Program-made: the position numbers and the translations under genes
Origin: Escherichia phage vB_EcoM-BECP11
Reading direction: 5' to 3' (one strand)
Sequence record: MW286157.1
Length of the DNA stretch: 64,000 nt
In this document: one piece after another, positions 3,142 through 39,197 of the stretch
How the letters are laid out: each line of letters begins with the position of its first letter
Numbering within the stretch: position 1 is the stretch's first letter
The notes under the pieces: generated by a model
Database searches by the model: none
Told to the model about the DNA's origin: nothing
What the model saw: only the letters and a program-made list of their open reading frames with translations

Positions 3142-5121
3142 TTAACCTGCAAGACCAGTTAACTCATCGAAATCTGCACCAGTAGCAGTTGCTACGAAGT
3201 TTAAGGTAATGTAGTTAATGCTTCTAGCCGGTTGAATGTAGAATGTTGCAACAAACTCATTTCTATCAATTACTGACGGAGTGTTATTTGTTGTATCGCA
3301 AACTACACGATATTCATAAATTCCGCCAAGAGCTTTAATTCCTTGCAAGTACTGAGCAGTTTCTGTACGGAATGAAGAACGAGTAAACGCGTTGTTTAAT
3401 TCGAACAAACGATATTTTGAACTACGTCCGATATTCGTTTTCAACATATTAAACAGACGACGAACGTTAATACGATCAAATGGAGAAGGAACAGAAGTAG
3501 CTGTTTTATCACCATACAATACGTAACCATCACCACCTGTACCAGTTACTGGGTTGATAGCTTCTTGATATAAGCGGTCACGTTGTGCCTGGCGAGTTTC
3601 AATAGCAAGTTTAATAACGTTAAGAATCTGGCCACGATTATAACCAGCTGGTGACATCCAAGTCTGAGATACGTTATCAGTTCTTGCGCATAAACCAGCA
3701 ATATCAGCTGCTAATGGAACCCAACGATTCACATCATTATATTTGTCATACTGATATTTGTAGTTGCCATCGATTGCTGCATAGGTTGAACTGATATTAA
3801 AGTTATTATCAGTGTATGAACCTGCTGCAGTTCTCCAGTTAACTAAATTATCTACTGCACGAGTTACAGGAATTCCAACTACAGTTTCACGTGGTGGTGA
3901 GCACAATACTAAGCAATCTTGGCGAGCATCCCCAATTGAAACGACGTGTTTTTGGACAGTAGATGCTGTTTCTAGAGATTCACCGGCACAAGAACCCGCA
4001 ATAAACAGTTGAACGTCAACAGATTCACGGTCAGCAAAGAAGTCCCAAGCTTCCATCAAATCTCCTGCTGTTACTTCAGCATTTGATGATAATCCACCAG
4101 ACAGAGTTAAAATTCCAGAGAAGCCTTCTGGCCAGTTTTGTGCAGTTGCAAAAATATATTCTGAGCCGCCTTTTGCGAAAAAGTCATCGATATAGATGTT
4201 ACTATCGTAAATATCTTTTTCACCACGCTTAGTTGAAAGAACAACGCTTTGAACAATAGCATCATTACGACGAACTATAATAGCGTACTGTGAATCGGTT
4301 TGTGGTCCATATCCAAACACTGCTTTAGCAGTAGATGCGCGAGTACCACCGCCAGGATAAATTGGGAGTAATGCAGAAGCGCCTTTCGCATAGTCAGCTT
4401 TAGATACGATTTCAATTTCAATTTTATCGCCTAATTCGCCTGGATAGAGAGCTACTACTCCTGGAATTCCATATTTTTCAAGATTTTCCTGAAAATTAAC
4501 TGCTGTCATAGCAGTTTCAGCGCTCTCGATTTCAGCTAATAAAATACCGGAATCAGTAATAATTTTTCCAAGAGTTATTACTGCAGCTAAACCGGAAGAA
4601 GATGAAGAAATTTCTGCAGTCCAGTTAGAACCTAATGTTGGGTATTCGCCAACTTCTTTAGCTTTAGCGATAATTTTTGCAGTAGGAATATTAATTTTCT
4701 TAATTTTTCCATCTGCGTCTACTTCAGTAATTTTACCTTCAGTTTCAATATCATCTGAAACATATTTGACCGTGATTTTATCTCCAACTGCATAGTTACT
4801 ACCTGGGGTAGAAATTGTGTATTCAATATTACCAGCAATTGGCGATGAGTTTTTAGCGGTATCTCTATCAACAGCACGAACTACTCGTAAGTCATTTCCG
4901 TACTGCAAGAAATTCATCGCAGACATAAAATAGTCAGCAGTTTCAGCGGTTGGTTGACCAAAAGTATTAACTAAATCTACTTCATTTGTAACCTGTTTAA
5001 TCTGAAAAGCAGGACCCCACTGGAATTTACCGGCCAAAGCTGCTGTACCAGTAGAGTTATTAACCACGGTGCTTTGAACCGTAGTTTCTTTGAGCTCAAT
5101 GCCCGGAGATAATAAAGTCAT
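3142..5121 (-). CDS. 18: tail sheath protein gp18
   Basis: 659 aa ORF, T4 gp18 length and synteny. Confidence 0.95.
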   Translation of the reverse strand: MTLLSPGIELKETTVQSTVVNNSTGTAALAGKFQWGPAFQIKQVTNEVDLVNTFGQPTAETADYFMSAMNFLQYGNDLRVVRAVDRDTAKNSSPIAGNIEYTISTPGSNYAVGDKITVKYVSDDIETEGKITEVDADGKIKKINIPTAKIIAKAKEVGEYPTLGSNWTAEISSSSSGLAAVITLGKIITDSGILLAEIESAETAMTAVNFQENLEKYGIPGVVALYPGELGDKIEIEIVSKADYAKGASALLPIYPGGGTRASTAKAVFGYGPQTDSQYAIIVRRNDAIVQSVVLSTKRGEKDIYDSNIYIDDFFAKGGSEYIFATAQNWPEGFSGILTLSGGLSSNAEVTAGDLMEAWDFFADRESVDVQLFIAGSCAGESLETASTVQKHVVSIGDARQDCLVLCSPPRETVVGIPVTRAVDNLVNWRTAAGSYTDNNFNISSTYAAIDGNYKYQYDKYNDVNRWVPLAADIAGLCARTDNVSQTWMSPAGYNRGQILNVIKLAIETRQAQRDRLYQEAINPVTGTGGDGYVLYGDKTATSVPSPFDRINVRRLFNMLKTNIGRSSKYRLFELNNAFTRSSFRTETAQYLQGIKALGGIYEYRVVCDTTNNTPSVIDRNEFVATFYIQPARSINYITLNFVATATGADFDELTGLAG

Positions 5122-5149: not shown

Positions 5150-8290
<3,141 letters not shown>

Positions 8291-30489: not shown

Positions 30490-30562
30490 TGGGAATTAGC
30501 CAAGTTGGTAAGGCACTGGATTTTGATTCCAGGATGCAAAGGTTCAAGTCCTTTATTCCCAG
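30490..30562 (+). tRNA. tRNA-Gln (UUG)
   Basis: Hand-folded cloverleaf: acceptor TGGGAAT/ATTCCCA, anticodon loop TTTTGAT, T-loop TTCAAGT; no encoded CCA. Confidence 0.85.
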
Positions 30563-30563
30563 C

Positions 30564-30650
30564 GCGAGAATGGTCAAATTGGTAAAGGCACAGCACTTAA
30601 AATGCTGCGGAATGATTTCCTTGTGGGTTCGAGTCCCACTTCTCGCACCA
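30564..30650 (+). tRNA. tRNA-Leu (UAA)
   Basis: Acceptor GCGAGAA/TTCTCGC, anticodon loop CTTAAAA, long variable arm, encoded CCA. Confidence 0.85.
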
Positions 30651-30655
30651 AATTT

Positions 30656-30729
<74 letters not shown>

Positions 30730-30739
30730 ATTTAATTTA

Positions 30740-30813
30740 CTCCGTGTAGCTCAGTTTGGTAGAGCGCCTGATTTGGGATCAGGAGGTCCAAGGTTCAAAT
30801 CCTTGTATGGAGA
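30740..30813 (+). tRNA. tRNA-Pro (UGG)
   Basis: Anticodon arm CCTGA-TTTGGGA-TCAGG, T-arm CAAGG-TTCAAAT-CCTTG, acceptor with two G-U pairs. Confidence 0.8.
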
Positions 30814-30815
30814 CT

Positions 30816-30905
30816 GGAGGCGTGGCAGAGTGGTTTAATGCACCGGTCTTGAAAACCGGCAGTCGCTCCGGCGACTCATAGGTTCGAATCCTATCGCCTC
30901 CGCCA
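30816..30905 (+). tRNA. tRNA-Ser (UGA)
   Basis: Acceptor GGAGGCG/CGCCTCC, anticodon loop CTTGAAA, long variable arm, T-loop TTCGAAT, CCA. Confidence 0.85.
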
Positions 30906-30910
30906 GTTTT

Positions 30911-30986
30911 GCTGATTTAGCTCAGTAGGTAGAGCACCTCACTTGTAATGAGGATGTCGGCGGTTCGATTCCGTCAATCAGCACCA
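30911..30986 (+). tRNA. tRNA-Thr (UGU)
   Basis: Acceptor GCTGATT/AATCAGC, anticodon arm CCTCA-CTTGTAA-TGAGG, CCA. Confidence 0.85.
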
Positions 30987-30987
30987 A

Positions 30988-31062
30988 GGCCCTGTAGCTG
31001 GAAGGTTCAAGCAAGCGACTCATAATCGCCAGATGGTGGTTCAATTCCACCCAGGGCCACCA
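30988..31062 (+). tRNA. tRNA with CAU anticodon (Ile2 type as in T4, formally could be Met)
   Basis: Acceptor GGCCCTG/CAGGGCC, anticodon loop CTCATAA, T-arm GGTGG-TTCAATT-CCACC, CCA. Confidence 0.75.
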
Positions 31063-31074
31063 AATTATGAATTA

Positions 31075-31161
31075 GGGGAGTTATCCCGTAGAGGTAGCGG
31101 TGTGGACTGTAAATTCATTGTCATTGCGACTCGGGTGGTTCGACTCCATCACTCCCCACCA
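31075..31161 (+). tRNA. tRNA-Tyr (GUA), type II
   Basis: Perfect acceptor GGGGAGT/ACTCCCC, anticodon loop CTGTAAA with U33 and A37, long variable arm with 3 bp stem, CCA. Confidence 0.7.
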
Positions 31162-31165
31162 ATTT

Positions 31166-31240
31166 GGATGTGTAGCTCAATGGCAGAGCGATCGCCTGTT
31201 AAGCGATTGGTTATAGGTTCGAATCCTATCACGTCCGCCA
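31166..31240 (+). tRNA. tRNA-Asn (GUU)
   Basis: D-arm GCTC/GAGC, anticodon arm ATCGC-CTGTTAA-GCGAT, T-arm ATAGG-TTCGAAT-CCTAT, CCA. Confidence 0.8.
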
Positions 31241-31354
31241 AATTTGTGACAACTGTCACATTAATATCTACTTGACGCGATTATAGGGGTTGAACTGATC
31301 ACTCTTCTCTTAATTTCGTGTGAAGACATCATGATTGTTGGAGTAGGTATTAAT

Positions 31355-31430
31355 GTGGCCGTAGTTCAGTTGGTAGAACTCGAGATTGTGATTCTCGTAG
31401 TCATGGGTTCGACTCCCATCGGTCACCCCA
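31355..31430 (+). tRNA. tRNA-His (GUG) with extra 5' G(-1)
   Basis: 8 bp acceptor including G-1 opposite C73, anticodon arm CGAGA-TTGTGAT-TCTCG, T-loop TTCGACT, CCA. Confidence 0.8.
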
Positions 31431-31434
31431 ATTA

Positions 31435-31510
31435 CGGGGCATAGCTCAGAAGGAAGAGCAAGGACCTTCTAAGTCCTGGGTCGTAGGTTCGATCCCTACT
31501 GCCTCGACCA
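31435..31510 (+). tRNA. tRNA-Arg (UCU)
   Basis: D-arm GCTC/GAGC, anticodon arm AGGAC-CTTCTAA-GTCCT, T-loop TTCGATC, CCA. Confidence 0.85.
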
Positions 31511-31528: not shown

Positions 31529-31879
31529 ATGAAAGGTAATGTTTATTTAGTAGTTCATGATTTAACATTCTATTTTAATCATAATGATACTGTTATTTCT
31601 GAACGCGTAATTAATTTGCTTTATCAGCATGCAGATTATGTTTATGTCGAAAACGAATTTGGTCATTGGCAATTTCTCAAAAATCGTTCATTTGGTTTAG
31701 ATGGTTACGAATATTTTGAACGTAAAGACCTTTTAGATAAAATTCCGTTATCTACACAATATCAAAATCACAAGTCTTTATATAAATGCCGTCCAATTCG
31801 AAATGCTGAATCTGCGTATGAAGTAATTGATTTATGGCGTAAACGTCGTGAACAGGTTGATGCTTTAAAAGAATACTAA
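31529..31879 (+). CDS. hypothetical protein
   Basis: 116 aa ORF with SD GAGGAAAA right after tRNA-Arg. Confidence 0.6.
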   Translation: MKGNVYLVVHDLTFYFNHNDTVISERVINLLYQHADYVYVENEFGHWQFLKNRSFGLDGYEYFERKDLLDKIPLSTQYQNHKSLYKCRPIRNAESAYEVIDLWRKRREQVDALKEY

Positions 31880-32186
31880 GAAACCGGGTCGCTACCGGTA
31901 AGTCGTCGGACTGATGTTCCCTGGAGTATAGTTTCCTCCCACAGTTTTACTGTGTTCTGGCTCTTTACTATCACAGCAGAAACGGCGCACCGAATTATCG
32001 ATTCGAGGAAATATCTTTGCCGTAAACCGAGTAGCGTTTTTGACGGAACGTTCGGATATGGTCGAGATATGGCCTTTTAAAAATATTGAGTAGCGTCAAC
32101 TGCTTAATAACCGGGTTCGAATCCCGGCGTTTCGTACAAACACTTGCCTTAGCAGGTGGAACCCCGACAAGGTTGCCGCAAGGCTT
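31880..32186 (+). ncRNA. candidate structured non-coding RNA region (possibly related to the small stable RNAs of the T4 tRNA region)
   Basis: About 300 bp with no credible ORF on either strand, GC-richer than surroundings, contains a T-arm-like hairpin CCGGG-TTCGAAT-CCCGG and ends at a strong terminator. Confidence 0.3.
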
Positions 32187-32215
32187 AGCCCCGACCGAAA
32201 GGTTGGGGCTTTTTA
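32187..32215 (+). terminator. intrinsic terminator, 10 bp stem with GAAA tetraloop
   Basis: AGCCCCGACC-GAAA-GGTTGGGGCT followed by TTTTT. Confidence 0.75.
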
Positions 32216-32260
32216 GTATAAATAAGTATATTAAATCCACGAATTAAAACAGGAAATAAG

Positions 32261-32734
32261 ATGAAATCATATACTCAATTTTTAAATGAAGCGGTGTTAA
32301 ATGAAGCATCTAGCACCGAAATTCAAGCTGTCGCAAAAGCAGCCATTGCAGCGGGTAAATATTCTTACAAAGATGCTTCTGATGAATCGCGATTTCAGTT
32401 CGCACGCGACATGAAAGCGGAAGGATTTACGGGAAATGCAGTTAGTATGGCCTGGAAAAGTTTAGTTGCTACTGGCGCTGCTTTTGCAAAGGCTTCGGGT
32501 AAACCTGCTCCTAAAGCAGATCCTAAAGTCGCACAAGAAAAAAATATCGTTAAAGGAATTATCTCCAAATATGAAGCTATCCTTAAAGAGCTTTTAGTAA
32601 TCAAAACTGAAGGCCAAAAGCTAGCTCGTGCTCATAGCTTTAAAGATAACCCACATGCTCATGACCTAGAGTATGTTGAAGACATCCAAAAAATTATTAA
32701 AGACCGCATTTGGTCTGCTAAACAAATCAAATAA
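32261..32734 (+). CDS. internal-protein-like protein with capsid-targeting sequence
   Basis: 157 aa starting MKSYTQFLNE-AVLNE-A, i.e. the MK-Y-F ten-residue capsid-targeting sequence plus L-x-E gp21 cleavage motifs seen in ipI and the ip gene after e. Confidence 0.65.
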   Translation: MKSYTQFLNEAVLNEASSTEIQAVAKAAIAAGKYSYKDASDESRFQFARDMKAEGFTGNAVSMAWKSLVATGAAFAKASGKPAPKADPKVAQEKNIVKGIISKYEAILKELLVIKTEGQKLARAHSFKDNPHAHDLEYVEDIQKIIKDRIWSAKQIK

Positions 32735-35806: not shown

Positions 35807-36291
35807 TTTTAAAAACTCGCTGGTATGATTTAGATGATGGGGATGATGGCATTTCAGTTAATAGAGTTGACTGGAATGGTTGTTCCGAAGATATGAAAAA
35901 TTTGTTGATTAGGGAGTTTAGAATGGGATATCAAGCAGCTAAGCCATCTATTATAACAGATGATAAATTCGTGTGTATTCATAATGGTCGCGCTAAGTTA
36001 ACGAACGCTGATTGGTTTACAAATAAGATTATGATTCTGTGGTATATCATTAGTCTTCCTGTGTCATCATTTGTATTTTGCTTCTTTGGTGAAAGTCCAA
36101 TAGGCAGAACAGGAGATTGGATTCTTTTAATTATGCTTGTTAATATTTTGACAGCAGCAATATTATCAGGAATATGGTGCGTGTTCATTGAAATGCCATG
36201 GCGTTTACGCAGACAGCAAAAGATTTTTGATGAAAAGAAATATACTCAAAATTTAAATAACTTTATCACTGAATGCAGGAAATTAAAATGA
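35803..36291 (+). CDS. membrane protein (C-terminal FITECRKLK motif)
   Basis: 162 aa, ATGA coupling to previous gene. Confidence 0.55.
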   Translation: MILKTRWYDLDDGDDGISVNRVDWNGCSEDMKNLLIREFRMGYQAAKPSIITDDKFVCIHNGRAKLTNADWFTNKIMILWYIISLPVSSFVFCFFGESPIGRTGDWILLIMLVNILTAAILSGIWCVFIEMPWRLRRQQKIFDEKKYTQNLNNFITECRKLK

Positions 36292-36728
36292 AAACACTAT
36301 CAGCTGGTATTATCTTTATGACAGAAGATAAAGATTTATTTATGGGTCGGGTTACTGGTTCTCGTAAGCCTGGAATGATGGCACATCGTTGGGATATTCC
36401 AAAGGGCCGTGTAGAAAGTTCTGATTTGAATGCACTGGAAGCTGCAAAAAGAGAATGCTTAGAAGAGACCGGTTTTAGCAATTATAATCCAGACCTTCTA
36501 GAAGACCTAGGTGTATTTAAATATTCTAGTAATAAAGACTTACAGTTATTTTATTATACGATTCCAGTAGAGCATGAGATGTTCAGAAATTGCCATTGCG
36601 AGTCTTATTTTGAAAATAAAGATGGCGTTATGATTCCAGAGATGGATGCTTTTGCTCTTATTCCTCGTACTCAGTGGCAATATGTGATGGGTCCTTCACT
36701 TTACCGAATAATGAACAGCCTCTTTTAA
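36288..36728 (+). CDS. nudE: Nudix hydrolase NudE
   Basis: Nudix box GRVESSDLNALEAAKRECLEETGF; ATGA-coupled start at 36288 (an in-frame ATG 15 nt upstream would give 151 aa). Confidence 0.8.
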   Translation: MKTLSAGIIFMTEDKDLFMGRVTGSRKPGMMAHRWDIPKGRVESSDLNALEAAKRECLEETGFSNYNPDLLEDLGVFKYSSNKDLQLFYYTIPVEHEMFRNCHCESYFENKDGVMIPEMDAFALIPRTQWQYVMGPSLYRIMNSLF

Positions 36729-37259
<531 letters not shown>

Positions 37260-37347: not shown

Positions 37348-37821
37348 ATGAAAACATATCAAGAATTTATCACTGAAGCAGCTATTAATTCTCAAATTAT
37401 TGCTGAATCTTTTACTGATCTTTTGAAATTTAAAAAAGGTCAAAAAATCACTGCTGTATTGGATGATGGTACAGAAGTTGAGATGGATGTACAGGGATAT
37501 AATTATGCAGTAGATGGAAAATTGTATAATAAATCTCATGCTAAATTTGATTCATTTGACGACTTTGTTAATACAGTTGAAGATGAAAAAACTCGTCGAT
37601 CCATTGCAACTGGTGATGCTAAGGTTCTTATGGCACATGGTCATGAACGCATTCGCGCTAAACAGAATAAAATGGGTGAAGATAATTTCGCATTAGTTGG
37701 TTATCAATCTGGTAAACAAACTTATGGCTATCAACGTACTGCTACCATGTATAATAAAAATGGTAAAATTGCCTTTGTAAATAGTAAAGGTTCTATTCAG
37801 TACGTTAAATCGTTCAAATAA
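37348..37821 (+). CDS. internal protein (ipII/ipIII locus) with capsid-targeting sequence
   Basis: 157 aa starting MKTYQEFITE-AAINSQIIAE-S; sits after e where T4 has ipIII and ipII, but the size differs from both. Confidence 0.75.
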   Translation: MKTYQEFITEAAINSQIIAESFTDLLKFKKGQKITAVLDDGTEVEMDVQGYNYAVDGKLYNKSHAKFDSFDDFVNTVEDEKTRRSIATGDAKVLMAHGHERIRAKQNKMGEDNFALVGYQSGKQTYGYQRTATMYNKNGKIAFVNSKGSIQYVKSFK

Positions 37822-37958
37822 TATGGGAACAGCCTGGACCTCATTTGAGGTATTCCCGCCAACCTGTGATAAGGTCGAGCCAAAGCGCGGTAATGGGTAA
37901 TGCAGGAATGGACAACTCATGTGCCATGGAATGGCCCAAAAACCTTAAGAGAAATAAC

Positions 37959-38501
37959 ATGAGAACATTTTTAACTGGCCCGTATCTATCCTTGATGAAT
38001 GCTTTTACACACCATTCTGATGCTAGAGTAGAAGAACTCTGTAAGAATGATTATCTTCCACCAATGGAAGATGTGCTCAAACAGTACTGCACACTTCGTA
38101 TAGATGGTGGACGTCAATCCGGTAAATCAGTTGCTGTGACTAACTTTGCCGCTAATTGGCTGTATGATGGCGGAACAGTTATTGTTCTTTCTAATACTTC
38201 AGCTTACGCTAAAATTTCTGCTGGCAACATTGAAAAAGAATTTTCTCGTTATTCTAGCGATGATATTCGATTCCGTTTATTTACTGATTCTGTCCGTAGT
38301 TTTATCGGTAATGAAGGTCATAAATTCCGTGGGTTATCGCTTTCTCGTATCTTGTACATAATTGACGAACCTATTAAAGCTCCTGATATGGATAAGATTT
38401 ACAATATCCATATTAAAACGGTACAACACTGTTGTCGAAGCTATAATGCTGAAACAGGTGAAACAGTTCGTCCTCAATTTTTTGTGATTGGAATGCAATG
38501 A
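37959..38501 (+). CDS. small P-loop NTPase-like protein
   Basis: Walker A-like GGRQSGKS and Walker B-like ILYIIDEP; start uncertain (in-frame ATGs at 37893, 37908, 37926, 37959; track ORF begins at TTG 37845). Confidence 0.5.
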   Translation: MRTFLTGPYLSLMNAFTHHSDARVEELCKNDYLPPMEDVLKQYCTLRIDGGRQSGKSVAVTNFAANWLYDGGTVIVLSNTSAYAKISAGNIEKEFSRYSSDDIRFRLFTDSVRSFIGNEGHKFRGLSLSRILYIIDEPIKAPDMDKIYNIHIKTVQHCCRSYNAETGETVRPQFFVIGMQ

Positions 38502-38827
38502 TGACAGACACACAGCTTTTCGAATATCTCTATTTTTCACCAAAAACTATTAAAAATAAATTGGTGAATCATTTTGAAATTTTAGCAAATAATAACATTT
38601 TGAGCGAATTTTATCCCAAGCAATACAAATTACAAAAAGGCGTATTCAAAGGATGCAGAGTTTTGTGTACTGCTCCTAACGCGCAGTTAATGAATAAAAT
38701 TCCATATTTTACCATGGAATTTATTGATGGACCTTTTAAAGGACTAATCACCCAAAGTTTAATGGCATATGATTCTGAGCCATTTTTAATTAAAGAACAA
38801 TCTTGGATAAATTTATTTTCTAATTGA
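38498..38827 (+). CDS. hypothetical protein
   Basis: 109 aa, ATGA coupling. Confidence 0.55.
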
Positions 38828-38834
38828 GGTTTAT

Positions 38835-39197
38835 ATGAAAGCATATCAAATTCTTGAAGGCACACATAAAGGTACTATTTATTTTGAAGATGGTATTCAA
38901 GCACGAATTATTGTCTCTAAAACCTTTAAAGAGGACTCTTTTGTAGACCCAGAAATTTTCTACGGTTTGCATGCCCGTGAAATTGAAATTGAGCAACAAC
39001 CTACAGTTAAAATTGAAGGTGGTCAACACCTGAACGTTAACGTTCTGCGTCGTGAAACTCTGGAAGATGCAGTTAAGCATCCGGAAAAATATCCGCAGCT
39101 GACCATCCGTGTATCAGGTTATGCAGTTCGCTTTAACTCTCTGACTCCGGAACAGCAGCGCGACGTTATCGCTCGTACCTTTACTGAGAGTTTGTAA
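38835..39197 (+). CDS. autonomous glycyl-radical cofactor (GrcA/YfiD-like) protein
   Basis: C-terminus ...[59 protein letters not shown] carries the RVSGY glycyl-radical motif; 3' half uses host-like CTG/CCG/CAG codons. Confidence 0.8.

Follow-up and report, generated by a model that had tools for sequence, protein, structure and literature searches.

Among the small non-tRNA RNAs that phages express together with their tRNAs are the stable RNAs C and D (species 1 and 2) of T4. Theta ribozymes, which resemble the hepatitis delta virus (HDV) ribozyme, adjoin phage tRNAs as well, and phage tRNA arrays are, according to recent literature, partly counter-defence devices. Promoter-early stem-loop (PeSL) cassettes combine an early promoter with a simple stem-loop. 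On a larger scale, Fremin et al. (2023; PMC10690425) derived 8,495 anonymous candidate RNAs ("DNAVirus_N") from IMG/VR on the basis of conserved intergenic regions and covariation, and they report many candidates adjacent to tRNAs. Here we analyzed 64,000 nucleotides (nt) of the genome of Escherichia phage vB_EcoM-BECP11 (MW286157.1), a Tequatrovirus (T4-like phage), whose closest records are EPIMRB01 and AUBRB02 (98.6% identity); this whole stretch is called the window below. Between the gene Ip4 and the 180-aa form of vs.8 (37822-37958, 137 nt), we found a structured RNA that, as far as comparison of sequences tells, is undescribed, widely distributed, phage specific, and present in T4 itself.

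A sequence-only reading had described this segment as GC rich, lacking an early-promoter consensus, and possibly a foreign remnant or a structured leader. Its GC content is indeed 48.2%, compared to 35.4% for the window, which places it in the top 1.3% of 137-nt windows (z = 2.6), and the RNA proper reaches 54%; the other GC-rich blocks of the window include the tRNA cluster. A scan of the segment gave neither sigma-70-type promoter-like nor terminator-like sites, as had been claimed for the promoter. A foreign origin was not supported. The proposed search by blastn against host genomes gave no match to the segment in 5,426 complete E. coli genomes, and a structure-aware pattern gave 0 matches in 185,579 bacterial and archaeal species (one genome each, 596 Gb). 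The segment is conserved in about 920 phage records (T4-like), the T4-type block GGGAAC...GGCCC having 95% mean column identity in 13 copies, and judged by this conservation, purifying selection acts strongly on it across hundreds of phages.

Using pattern scans and a covariance model, we gathered 98 copies of the RNA, 72 of them distinct, from isolates, IMG/VR (44 copies), and metagenomes (41 loci). The copies share the core ACC-UGUAANAAGG-UC..GCC...G.GC-GGUAA, and their flanking arms vary yet stay complementary. The window holds a single copy (core at 37850-37907; 65.3 bits, E ~1e-17); elsewhere in the window, the tRNA cluster region included, the model scored nothing above 12 bits. In a MAFFT alignment of 31 diverse copies, the junction was 89.8% paired versus 79.4% after shuffling, and covariation was 0.303 versus 0.088, the observed value being reached in none of 500 shuffles. 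Sliding the pairing partners lowered pairing to about 35% (27 to 45% in this alignment). Across this alignment and that of the 72 distinct copies, about 90% of positions were paired versus 77 to 79% in shuffles, and covariation was 0.30 to 0.36 versus 0.09 to 0.11.

The individual base pairs tell the same story. Those of helix P1 are formed in 97 to 99% of the 72 distinct copies, with three to five pair types each: AU (34 copies), UA (15), CG (10), UG (8), and GC (4) at the closing pair (12-46), CG (48), GC (10), UA (8), and AU (4) at the second, and CG (52), GC (12), and AU (5) at the third. The middle pair of P3 is CG in 59 copies and UA in 13, and the closing pair of P2 is AU in 69 and GC in 3. 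A blind mutual-information ranking placed proposed junction pairs in its top four positions. The unpaired positions, on the other side, are essentially invariant in the 72 copies (loop G-U-R-A-N-A, C-R-A, GGUAA, and a bulged G). For P3, we dropped the alternative proposed by RNAalifold (30-42, 31-41, 32-40) for 30-39, 31-38, and 32-36, because pair 31-38 changes on both sides (CG to UA, 13 distinct copies) and an optional bulge vanishes exactly in the short variants. The single-sequence minimum free energy of 37822-37975 was not below that of shuffles (z = -0.31); this value is uninformative, since the structure emerges solely from comparison. Overall, comparison establishes 37825-37937 as a conserved structured RNA module that is neither protein coding nor a host remnant, and the term "structured" of the sequence-only reading is thereby upheld for a hairpin and a three-way junction.

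The module begins with a hairpin, H5, whose stems are also maintained by compensatory changes: the outer stem GGGAA/UUCCC becomes GGGAG/CUCCC in one locus (L042), and the inner stem CCUCAUG/UAUGAGG becomes CCUUAUG/UAUAAGG in another (L078). An equivalent hairpin lies directly against P1 in all lineages, its sequence differing from one to the next (GGGG..CACAU-GACG-AUGUG..CCCC in the Vequintavirus Phage 203). The P2 hexaloop varies as GUAAUA, GUAACA, GUAAAA, or GUGAUA (G-N-R-A plus two nt), and one copy has a plain GUAA tetraloop. The 3' domain is kept in T4-type and Dhaka-type copies and is absent from non-T4 copies; its candidate hairpin shows one-sided changes (GUGCC to GCGCC, GGAC to GGAA) without compensation. 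Finally, the internal loop of H5 may pair with the tail behind the junction. This candidate pseudoknot has 4 bp in the window copy and 3 bp in T4, and other classes show the complementary pairs CCAG/CUGG, GCCAGC/GCUGGU, UGAGG/CCUCA, GGGUA/UACCC, ACAAGAA/UUCUUGU, and CUCCGG/CCGGAG. In a class-swap test, a loop matched its own tail better than swapped ones (6.40 versus 5.65; 50 of 20000 permutations, p ~0.0025). A broad longest-helix shuffle test for an enclosing helix or pseudoknot was negative (7.19 versus 7.16), and RNAduplex z-scores for a helix enclosing H5 and the junction were not significant (median -0.5). Because it amounts to 4 bp in the window, we regard the pseudoknot of the window copy as tentative. 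The coordinates of all features are collected in Table 1.

Table 1. The structured RNA and its surroundings (positions in the window)
Feature	Position	Strand	Remarks
Structured RNA, T4-type	37825-37937	+	113 nt; H5, three-way junction, and 3' domain
H5 hairpin	37825-37857	+	directly abuts P1
H5 outer stem	37825-37829 / 37853-37857		GGGAA / UUCCC
H5 5' internal loop	37830-37838		CAGCCUGGA
H5 inner stem	37839-37842 / 37847-37850		CCUC / GAGG
Three-way junction	37858-37898	+	pairing counts, covariation, and covariance-model match
P1	37858-37861 with 37894 and 37896-37898		bulged G at 37895
P2	37862-37865 / 37872-37875		GNRA-like hexaloop GUGAUA, 37866-37871
J2/3 joiner	37876-37878		CGA
P3	37879-37881 with 37885 and 37887-37888		triloop AAA
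J3/1 joiner	37889-37893		GGUAA
Candidate pseudoknot strand	37903-37906	+	CAGG; pairs with CCUG 37833-37836 in H5 internal loop
3' domain	37907-37937	+	AAUGGAC..CAUGUGCCAUGGAAUGGCCC; Tevenvirinae copies only
Candidate 3'-domain hairpin	37909-37913 / 37921-37926		UGGAC / GUGCCA
Purine tract of vs.8	37947-37952	+	AAGAGA; weak Shine-Dalgarno-like element; ends 6 nt before ATG
vs.8	37959-38501	+	180 aa; stop codon 38499-38501
Walker A of Vs.8	38106-38129		GGRQSGKS, aa 50-57
Walker B of Vs.8	38349-38372		ILYIIDEP, aa 131-138
nudE	36273-36728	+	
e	36765-37259	+	lysozyme
Ip4	37348-37821	+	internal virion protein, DUF7412; stop codon 37819-37821
vs.7	38498-38827	+	109 aa; open reading frame list; PHROG 2049
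vs.6	38835-39197	+	GrcA-like glycyl-radical protein

We next compared the RNA with described families. Rfam 15 (4227 models, including tRNA, tmRNA, riboswitches, ribozymes, and rRNA fragments) gave 0 matches at E<=10 to the isolated element (window copy and L068), none at E<=1 to the element in nine other loci, and none on the element when the whole window was searched at the gathering threshold. A tRNA or tRNA-like nature was rejected: ARAGORN found none at 37600-38200, and the real tRNAs that flank the element were detected in the same loci. Mimicry of an anticodon loop (CUGUAAA resembles the loop of tRNA-Tyr and CUGUGAU of the window that of tRNA-His) was set aside because U16-A23 belongs to P2 (one AU variant) and the loop acts as GNRA plus two nt, with a GUAA variant. 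Mimicry of the 23S GTPase centre or the 16S 530 loop was likewise rejected, since the likeness is confined to short strings, the helices come in another order, and none of the rRNA models matches. The literature on vs.8, denV, T4 non-coding RNA, tRNA-array RNAs, and the literal core sequence gave no description of the motif, and the RegB paper and the preprint on T4 nicotinamide adenine dinucleotide (NAD) caps do not touch the locus. The catalogue of Fremin et al. (PMC10690425) follows the same logic and draws on the same IMG/VR collection as our 44 copies from that source; its main text mentions neither vs.8 nor Straboviridae or Tevenvirinae, and gives no function to such motifs.

In T4-like phages, the RNA lies directly 5' of vs.8, whatever its upstream neighbour (Ip4, denV, or other internal-protein [IP] genes). 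Outside of them, the 43-bp core is 93 to 95% identical in the unrelated, ~136-kb Vequintavirus (rV5-like) genomes, where it lies in unannotated DNA beside tRNA genes. Besides Vequintavirinae, the RNA is found in KpCHEMY26 (Schitoviridae, an N4-like Klebsiella phage), in Pseudomonas phage PsgM04F, in the 45-kb coliphage Ivi, and on numerous uncultured contigs (gut, marine, and saline samples). By tblastn, vs.8 is missing from the non-T4 loci and genomes that carry the RNA, and vs.8 was thus rejected as its partner outside T4-like phages.

Among the copies that are not beside vs.8, 25 have a tRNA within 700 nt, in 25 of 25 cases on the same strand. Four begin within about 40 to 50 nt of a tRNA 3' end (L043, L069, L090, and L095), others lie 5' of a tRNA array (L004, L007, L008, and L019), and several lie 3' of tRNAs, closing the arrays. 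An intrinsic terminator ends 7 of the 36 distinct non-T4 copies, and in Ivi the RNA is flanked by a promoter-like site (11/12) and a terminator. The RNA can also be duplicated: two tandem copies precede vs.8 in L006, L036, and L091 and occur on a non-T4 contig (L035/L056), and in Klebsiella T4-like phages a second copy, 3' domain included, lies 5' of an IP gene rather than vs.8 (L010, 719-776; L033, 10334-10391). Comparison across these genomes demonstrates a strand-specific, conserved RNA structure, and in most phage families this structure is not tied to vs.8.

We give about an even chance to an autonomous RNA that acts through its invariant junction on a partner conserved across hosts, and that is either co-expressed with tRNAs or embedded in an early T4-like message. 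Both its action in trans and its binding to a conserved partner are inferred from the pattern of distribution and conservation. In this phage, the RNA would be transcribed within the Ip4-vs.8 message, and in other phages in tRNA operons or from a promoter of its own with its own terminator. The rigid, invariant junction would then bind its partner, which would be conserved across the hosts or the phages; candidates are proteins of the translation or RNA machinery, defence nucleases, and small molecules. Produced together with phage tRNAs, the RNA could thus act as a decoy, as a sponge, or as an adaptor. It would not switch the expression of vs.8. Its fixed spot 5' of vs.8 in T4-like phages would reflect tight physical linkage and at most a lineage-specific partnership, which the 3' domain specific to these phages may serve. 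It is possible, although we hold it as doubtful, that the RNA represents a new functional class in T4 and many other virulent phages that infect Gammaproteobacteria, namely a self-cleaving ribozyme or a high-affinity aptamer or decoy for a conserved host factor or immune signal, deployed with phage tRNAs for host takeover or anti-defence.

Several points weigh against an autonomous RNA acting in trans. Its function is read from distribution only. All 46 T4-like copies directly precede vs.8 at a near-fixed distance, so that a role in cis or an RNA-protein partnership would also fit, and an invariant junction with covarying stems would suit a self-cleaving or ligand-sensing RNA equally well. As for the structure, the alignment of 72 copies was built to fit the model, and the shuffle control takes no account of phylogeny, but the alignment made independently with MAFFT agrees; the pseudoknot is weak in the window copy, as seen above. 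Furthermore, the motif may already be among the 8,495 "DNAVirus_N" candidates (PMC10690425).

The RNA could instead be a processing element, that is, a small self-cleaving ribozyme or a recognition module for an RNase of host or phage, through which polycistronic transcripts would be cut and RNA ends set between cistrons (Ip4 and vs.8) and between the units of tRNA arrays. A three-way junction of 41 nt in which the stems covary and some 20 unpaired nt are invariant is typical of small ribozymes, the element lies between cistrons and in tRNA arrays, whose units all need excision, four copies start close to a tRNA 3' end, and theta ribozymes are a precedent beside phage tRNAs. However, no ribozyme family of Rfam 15 matches, and the joiners (0 nt, C-R-A, and GGUAA) are unlike the hammerhead core, a candidate that we rejected on both grounds. 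In addition, the stand-alone copies with promoter and terminator and the tandem duplicates have no obvious substrate. We therefore consider processing unlikely, while keeping it in view.

A cis-acting leader of vs.8 or of other downstream genes (a riboswitch, a protein operator, or a put-like RNA that modifies polymerase or ribosome) seems rather improbable to us. It would account for the constant position just 5' of vs.8 in T4-like phages, with 91 to 101 nt from core to ATG, for the co-directionality with downstream genes and tRNAs throughout, for the aptamer-like conservation, and for the copies upstream of tRNA arrays, and the terminator behind some copies could be the regulated element. 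Against it, the downstream features are mixed (vs.8, an IP gene, tRNAs, a terminator, or unrelated small open reading frames [ORFs]), several copies stand at array ends, and the terminators lie 25 to 113 nt from the junction without overlapping the 3' strand of P1. The sequence that separates the RNA from the vs.8 ATG varies among relatives, and neither it nor the RNA shows a conserved alternative pairing with the AGAGA tract or the start codon; no expression platform is thus evident. The conservation is aptamer-like and would suit a riboswitch; neither an expression platform nor a consistent class of regulated genes was found. Regulation of vs.8 in cis, which the word "leader" had implied, is doubtful because other phage families carry the RNA in the absence of vs.8, within tRNA arrays or as a transcription unit of its own.

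Very little speaks for an element acting as DNA, such as an origin, a site bound by a protein, or a linker for recombination at the edge of the hyperplastic internal-protein locus. The segment does lie exactly where the variable IP/denV region meets the conserved vs cluster, and the near identity of the 43-bp core in T4-like and rV5-like phages suggests horizontal exchange. The helices, however, are maintained by compensatory base changes, their G-U pairs (8 UG at 12-46, 16 GU at 9-52) would turn into A-C mismatches if the opposite strand were read, the orientation is always that of transcription, and copies are located in tRNA operons and have their own terminators.

Least credible of all, and refuted by a comparison of orthologues in which neither frame nor peptide is conserved, is that the segment encodes the N terminus of a longer Vs.8 of 218/219 aa (NP_049732; ORF 64.0 of X04567). 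The idea is an old one. In the window the vs.8 frame is open from TTG 37845 to the stop codon, with an in-frame stop upstream at 37806, and in T4 it is open from an ATG. The T4 RefSeq entry gives 219 aa (NC_000866, 64253-64912; 2754-3413 in our T4 locus, L003), the T4 record X04567 of 1986 lists alternatives of 219 and 203 aa, and RB51, EPIMRB01, and others are annotated with 180 aa. The sequence-only reading, which called the start ambiguous, was thus a fair one, and it had rightly noted several in-frame ATGs without a good Shine-Dalgarno sequence (37893, 37908, and 37926); indeed, no Shine-Dalgarno-like sequence precedes any of these, GTG 37866, or TTG 37845. The 180-aa form, by comparison, begins behind the purine tract listed in Table 1, and most orthologues have AGAGA or GAGAGA at an equal distance.

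Comparison settles the matter. In tblastn of 33 orthologous loci, alignments begin at residues 1 to 5 of the 180-aa form, M1 of this form is invariant in the protein alignment, and the homologues are 172 to 196 aa long. The distance from the conserved core to the ATG occurs in phases 0, 1, and 2, even in close relatives, and most orthologues have an in-frame stop 0 to 69 nt upstream of the ATG. The annotated T4 ATG sits in the variable loop of the 5' hairpin and corresponds to the TTG of the window, and T4 and the window translate homologous upstream DNA in different frames due to 1-nt and 7/8-nt indels. The same type of sequence is also found in tRNA arrays without any ORF. A longer N terminus conserved in orthologues, which would have made the segment ordinary coding DNA, is therefore absent, frameshifting indels and stops breaking the upstream frame. 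Because homology starts at M1, all three phases occur, stops lie upstream, and the T4 frame is shifted, the start of vs.8 is, on comparative grounds, ATG 37959. On the same evidence, the T4 RefSeq entry probably needs correction from 219 to 180 aa.

The protein itself had been described as a small one with Walker A- and B-like motifs, and this proved correct: both motifs are invariant across 16 homologues, down to 41% identity. Vs.8 belongs to PHROG 1488 (E 5.5e-78; aa 3 to 180 on profile positions 2 to 177 of 177) and is limited to about 1010 T4-like genomes (1010 phage records, tblastn). Its AlphaFold model (pLDDT 78.7, pTM 0.80) shows one RecA-like domain, which carries a GxxxxGK[ST] Walker A and an hhhhDE Walker B motif as in P-loop NTPases of the ASCE division. 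The model aligns solely to domain 1 of Mfd, DDX1, RIG-I, DDX20, HsdR, and ZorD (about 125 to 135 residues), and Foldseek gave weaker matches of the same kind. In Pfam, only subthreshold AAA and terminase matches were found, and Vs.8 had no matches in defence-system libraries or among the sequences of solved structures. A superfamily 2 (SF2) helicase was rejected since there is a single domain without a second RecA-like one, and a terminase large subunit (an ATPase plus nuclease of ~400 to 600 aa) since there is no nuclease domain. With Walker A and B motifs and neither of these additional domains, Vs.8 is, as modeled, a stand-alone RecA-like ASCE ATPase of the SF2-helicase-domain-1 type. Similar orphan proteins of 140 to 176 aa are widespread in large phages.

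Regarding the neighbouring genes, the start of vs.7 overlaps the stop of vs.8 (ATGA, 38498-38501), and vs.7 is kept after vs.8 across T4-like loci. This overlap and the conserved pairing suggest translational coupling, and the two products perhaps form a two-protein unit. The Ip4 product matches Pfam DUF7412 (E 5.7e-96) and PHROG 3155 (internal virion protein) and is annotated likewise in RB51 and T4. The best sigma-70-like match of the region (37156-37184; TTAACT-17-TATAAT preceded by TG, 10/12) falls within the 3'-terminal part of e, about 165 nt 5' of Ip4, and could drive an Ip4-RNA-vs.8 transcript. The tRNA cluster of the window (11 tRNAs, 30490-31510) is on the same strand, 6.3 kb upstream of the RNA. 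Just 3' of it, three more GC-rich blocks (31871-32538, each at least 48% GC over 137 nt) reach the threshold of no Rfam family; in T4, the stable RNAs C and D are encoded in this region.

Other genomes carrying the RNA provided further observations. In PsgM04F, small hypothetical coding sequences (CDSs) lie over or against the RNA on the opposite strand (L013, 1446-1556 and 1546-1764), and in Ivi a 38-aa ORF overlaps its 3' part (L096, 2590-2706); these CDSs are probably spurious and caused by an unannotated RNA gene. In Phage 203, the ORF right after the RNA (L004, 3178-3516; PHROG 3330) has an arginine-rich start, MADTTKKRRRRGRPLKEE, followed by an acidic tail. Arginine-rich motifs bind GNRA-like hairpin loops in the N/boxB systems of lambdoid phages. 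KpCHEMY26 has a 1-kb CDS-free stretch after its tRNA array (L097, 2370-3374), with several units closed by near-identical long stems, GUGCUCUUuuCGUUGUGa ... CACAACAgGUAAGAGCA. Units closed by such stems also occur in L007, L019, L024, and L038, and one unit is the three-way-junction RNA; the flank of the unit in L007 is 98% identical over 51 nt to the temperate phage HK620. Lastly, a contig that carries the RNA at 6696-6752 (L043, IMGVR_UViG_3300042010_000030) also has a 52-nt stretch (3349-3400) within an array of 10 tRNAs and on their strand. Its first hairpin is letter-perfect to 23S helix 43 of the GTPase-associated centre (GGCUUAGAAGCAGCC...UUUAAAGAGUG), and the stretch matches positions 1182-1231 of the Rfam archaeal large-subunit (LSU) rRNA model (E 5.9e-5). 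By its sequence, it appears to mimic, in a phage, the rRNA domain to which L11 and thiostrepton bind.

In T4, the reference phage, a strongly conserved RNA that lacks annotation is unexpected. Its conservation is of the grade of riboswitches and ribozymes. It is confined to virulent phages, is shared across family lines (Straboviridae, Vequintavirinae, Schitoviridae, and others), and accompanies tRNA arrays. Conservation, phage restriction, and the company of tRNA arrays thus make it a candidate for a new class of functional RNA that is small (~45 to 110 nt) and lends itself to experiments, the whole T4 genetics toolkit being applicable. If such a class does exist, it has been concealed in T4 for 40 years beneath a misannotated N-terminal extension of vs.8. 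More generally, a GC-rich, ORF-poor patch in an AT-rich phage genome is a good pointer to structured RNA, and our analysis flags both the probable start error in T4 RefSeq and the probably spurious small CDSs in other phages.

How does this RNA compare with known systems? With PeSL cassettes and the T4-type linkers of hyperplastic regions it shares the character of a conserved non-coding module at the boundary of shuffled gene cassettes, but unlike PeSL it has no promoter-like site, forms a covarying multihelix junction, and is shared with non-T4 families. Its P2 loop is of the G-N-R-A plus two nt type, like the GNRA-like hexaloops of docking hairpins (23S helix 44 and lambda boxB-N), and the variant GUAAUA is the very hexaloop of 23S helix 44 in the L11/thiostrepton GTPase centre. 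Unlike the GTPase-centre RNA, however, it has a different helix order and different joiners and no LSU rRNA match on the element, the look-alike in L043 being a different RNA.

With riboswitch aptamers built on three-way junctions (purine, thiamine pyrophosphate [TPP], and cyclic di-GMP-I), the RNA has in common the signature of covarying stems around invariant junction nucleotides, together with a GNRA-like loop suited for docking. It differs from them in having no Rfam match, no expression platform, and no constant class of downstream genes, in being absent from the scanned bacterial genomes, and in its occurrence in tRNA arrays and as a predicted stand-alone, terminated transcript. Small phage ribozymes (hammerhead and theta) resemble it in their compact junction, invariant joiners, and phage or tRNA-array setting, but its core sequence and joiner lengths differ from the CUGANGA / GAAA / NUH of the hammerhead, and no Rfam ribozyme matches. 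The stable RNAs C and D of T4 show no relation to it in sequence or structure, and outside the element the covariance model gave no score above 12 bits anywhere in the window, the stretch 3' of the tRNA cluster among it. Unlike them, the RNA of T4-like phages lies 6.3 kb away from the tRNAs, inside an mRNA; in non-T4 phages, however, it sits inside tRNA arrays, just as RNAs C and D are expressed with the tRNAs of T4.

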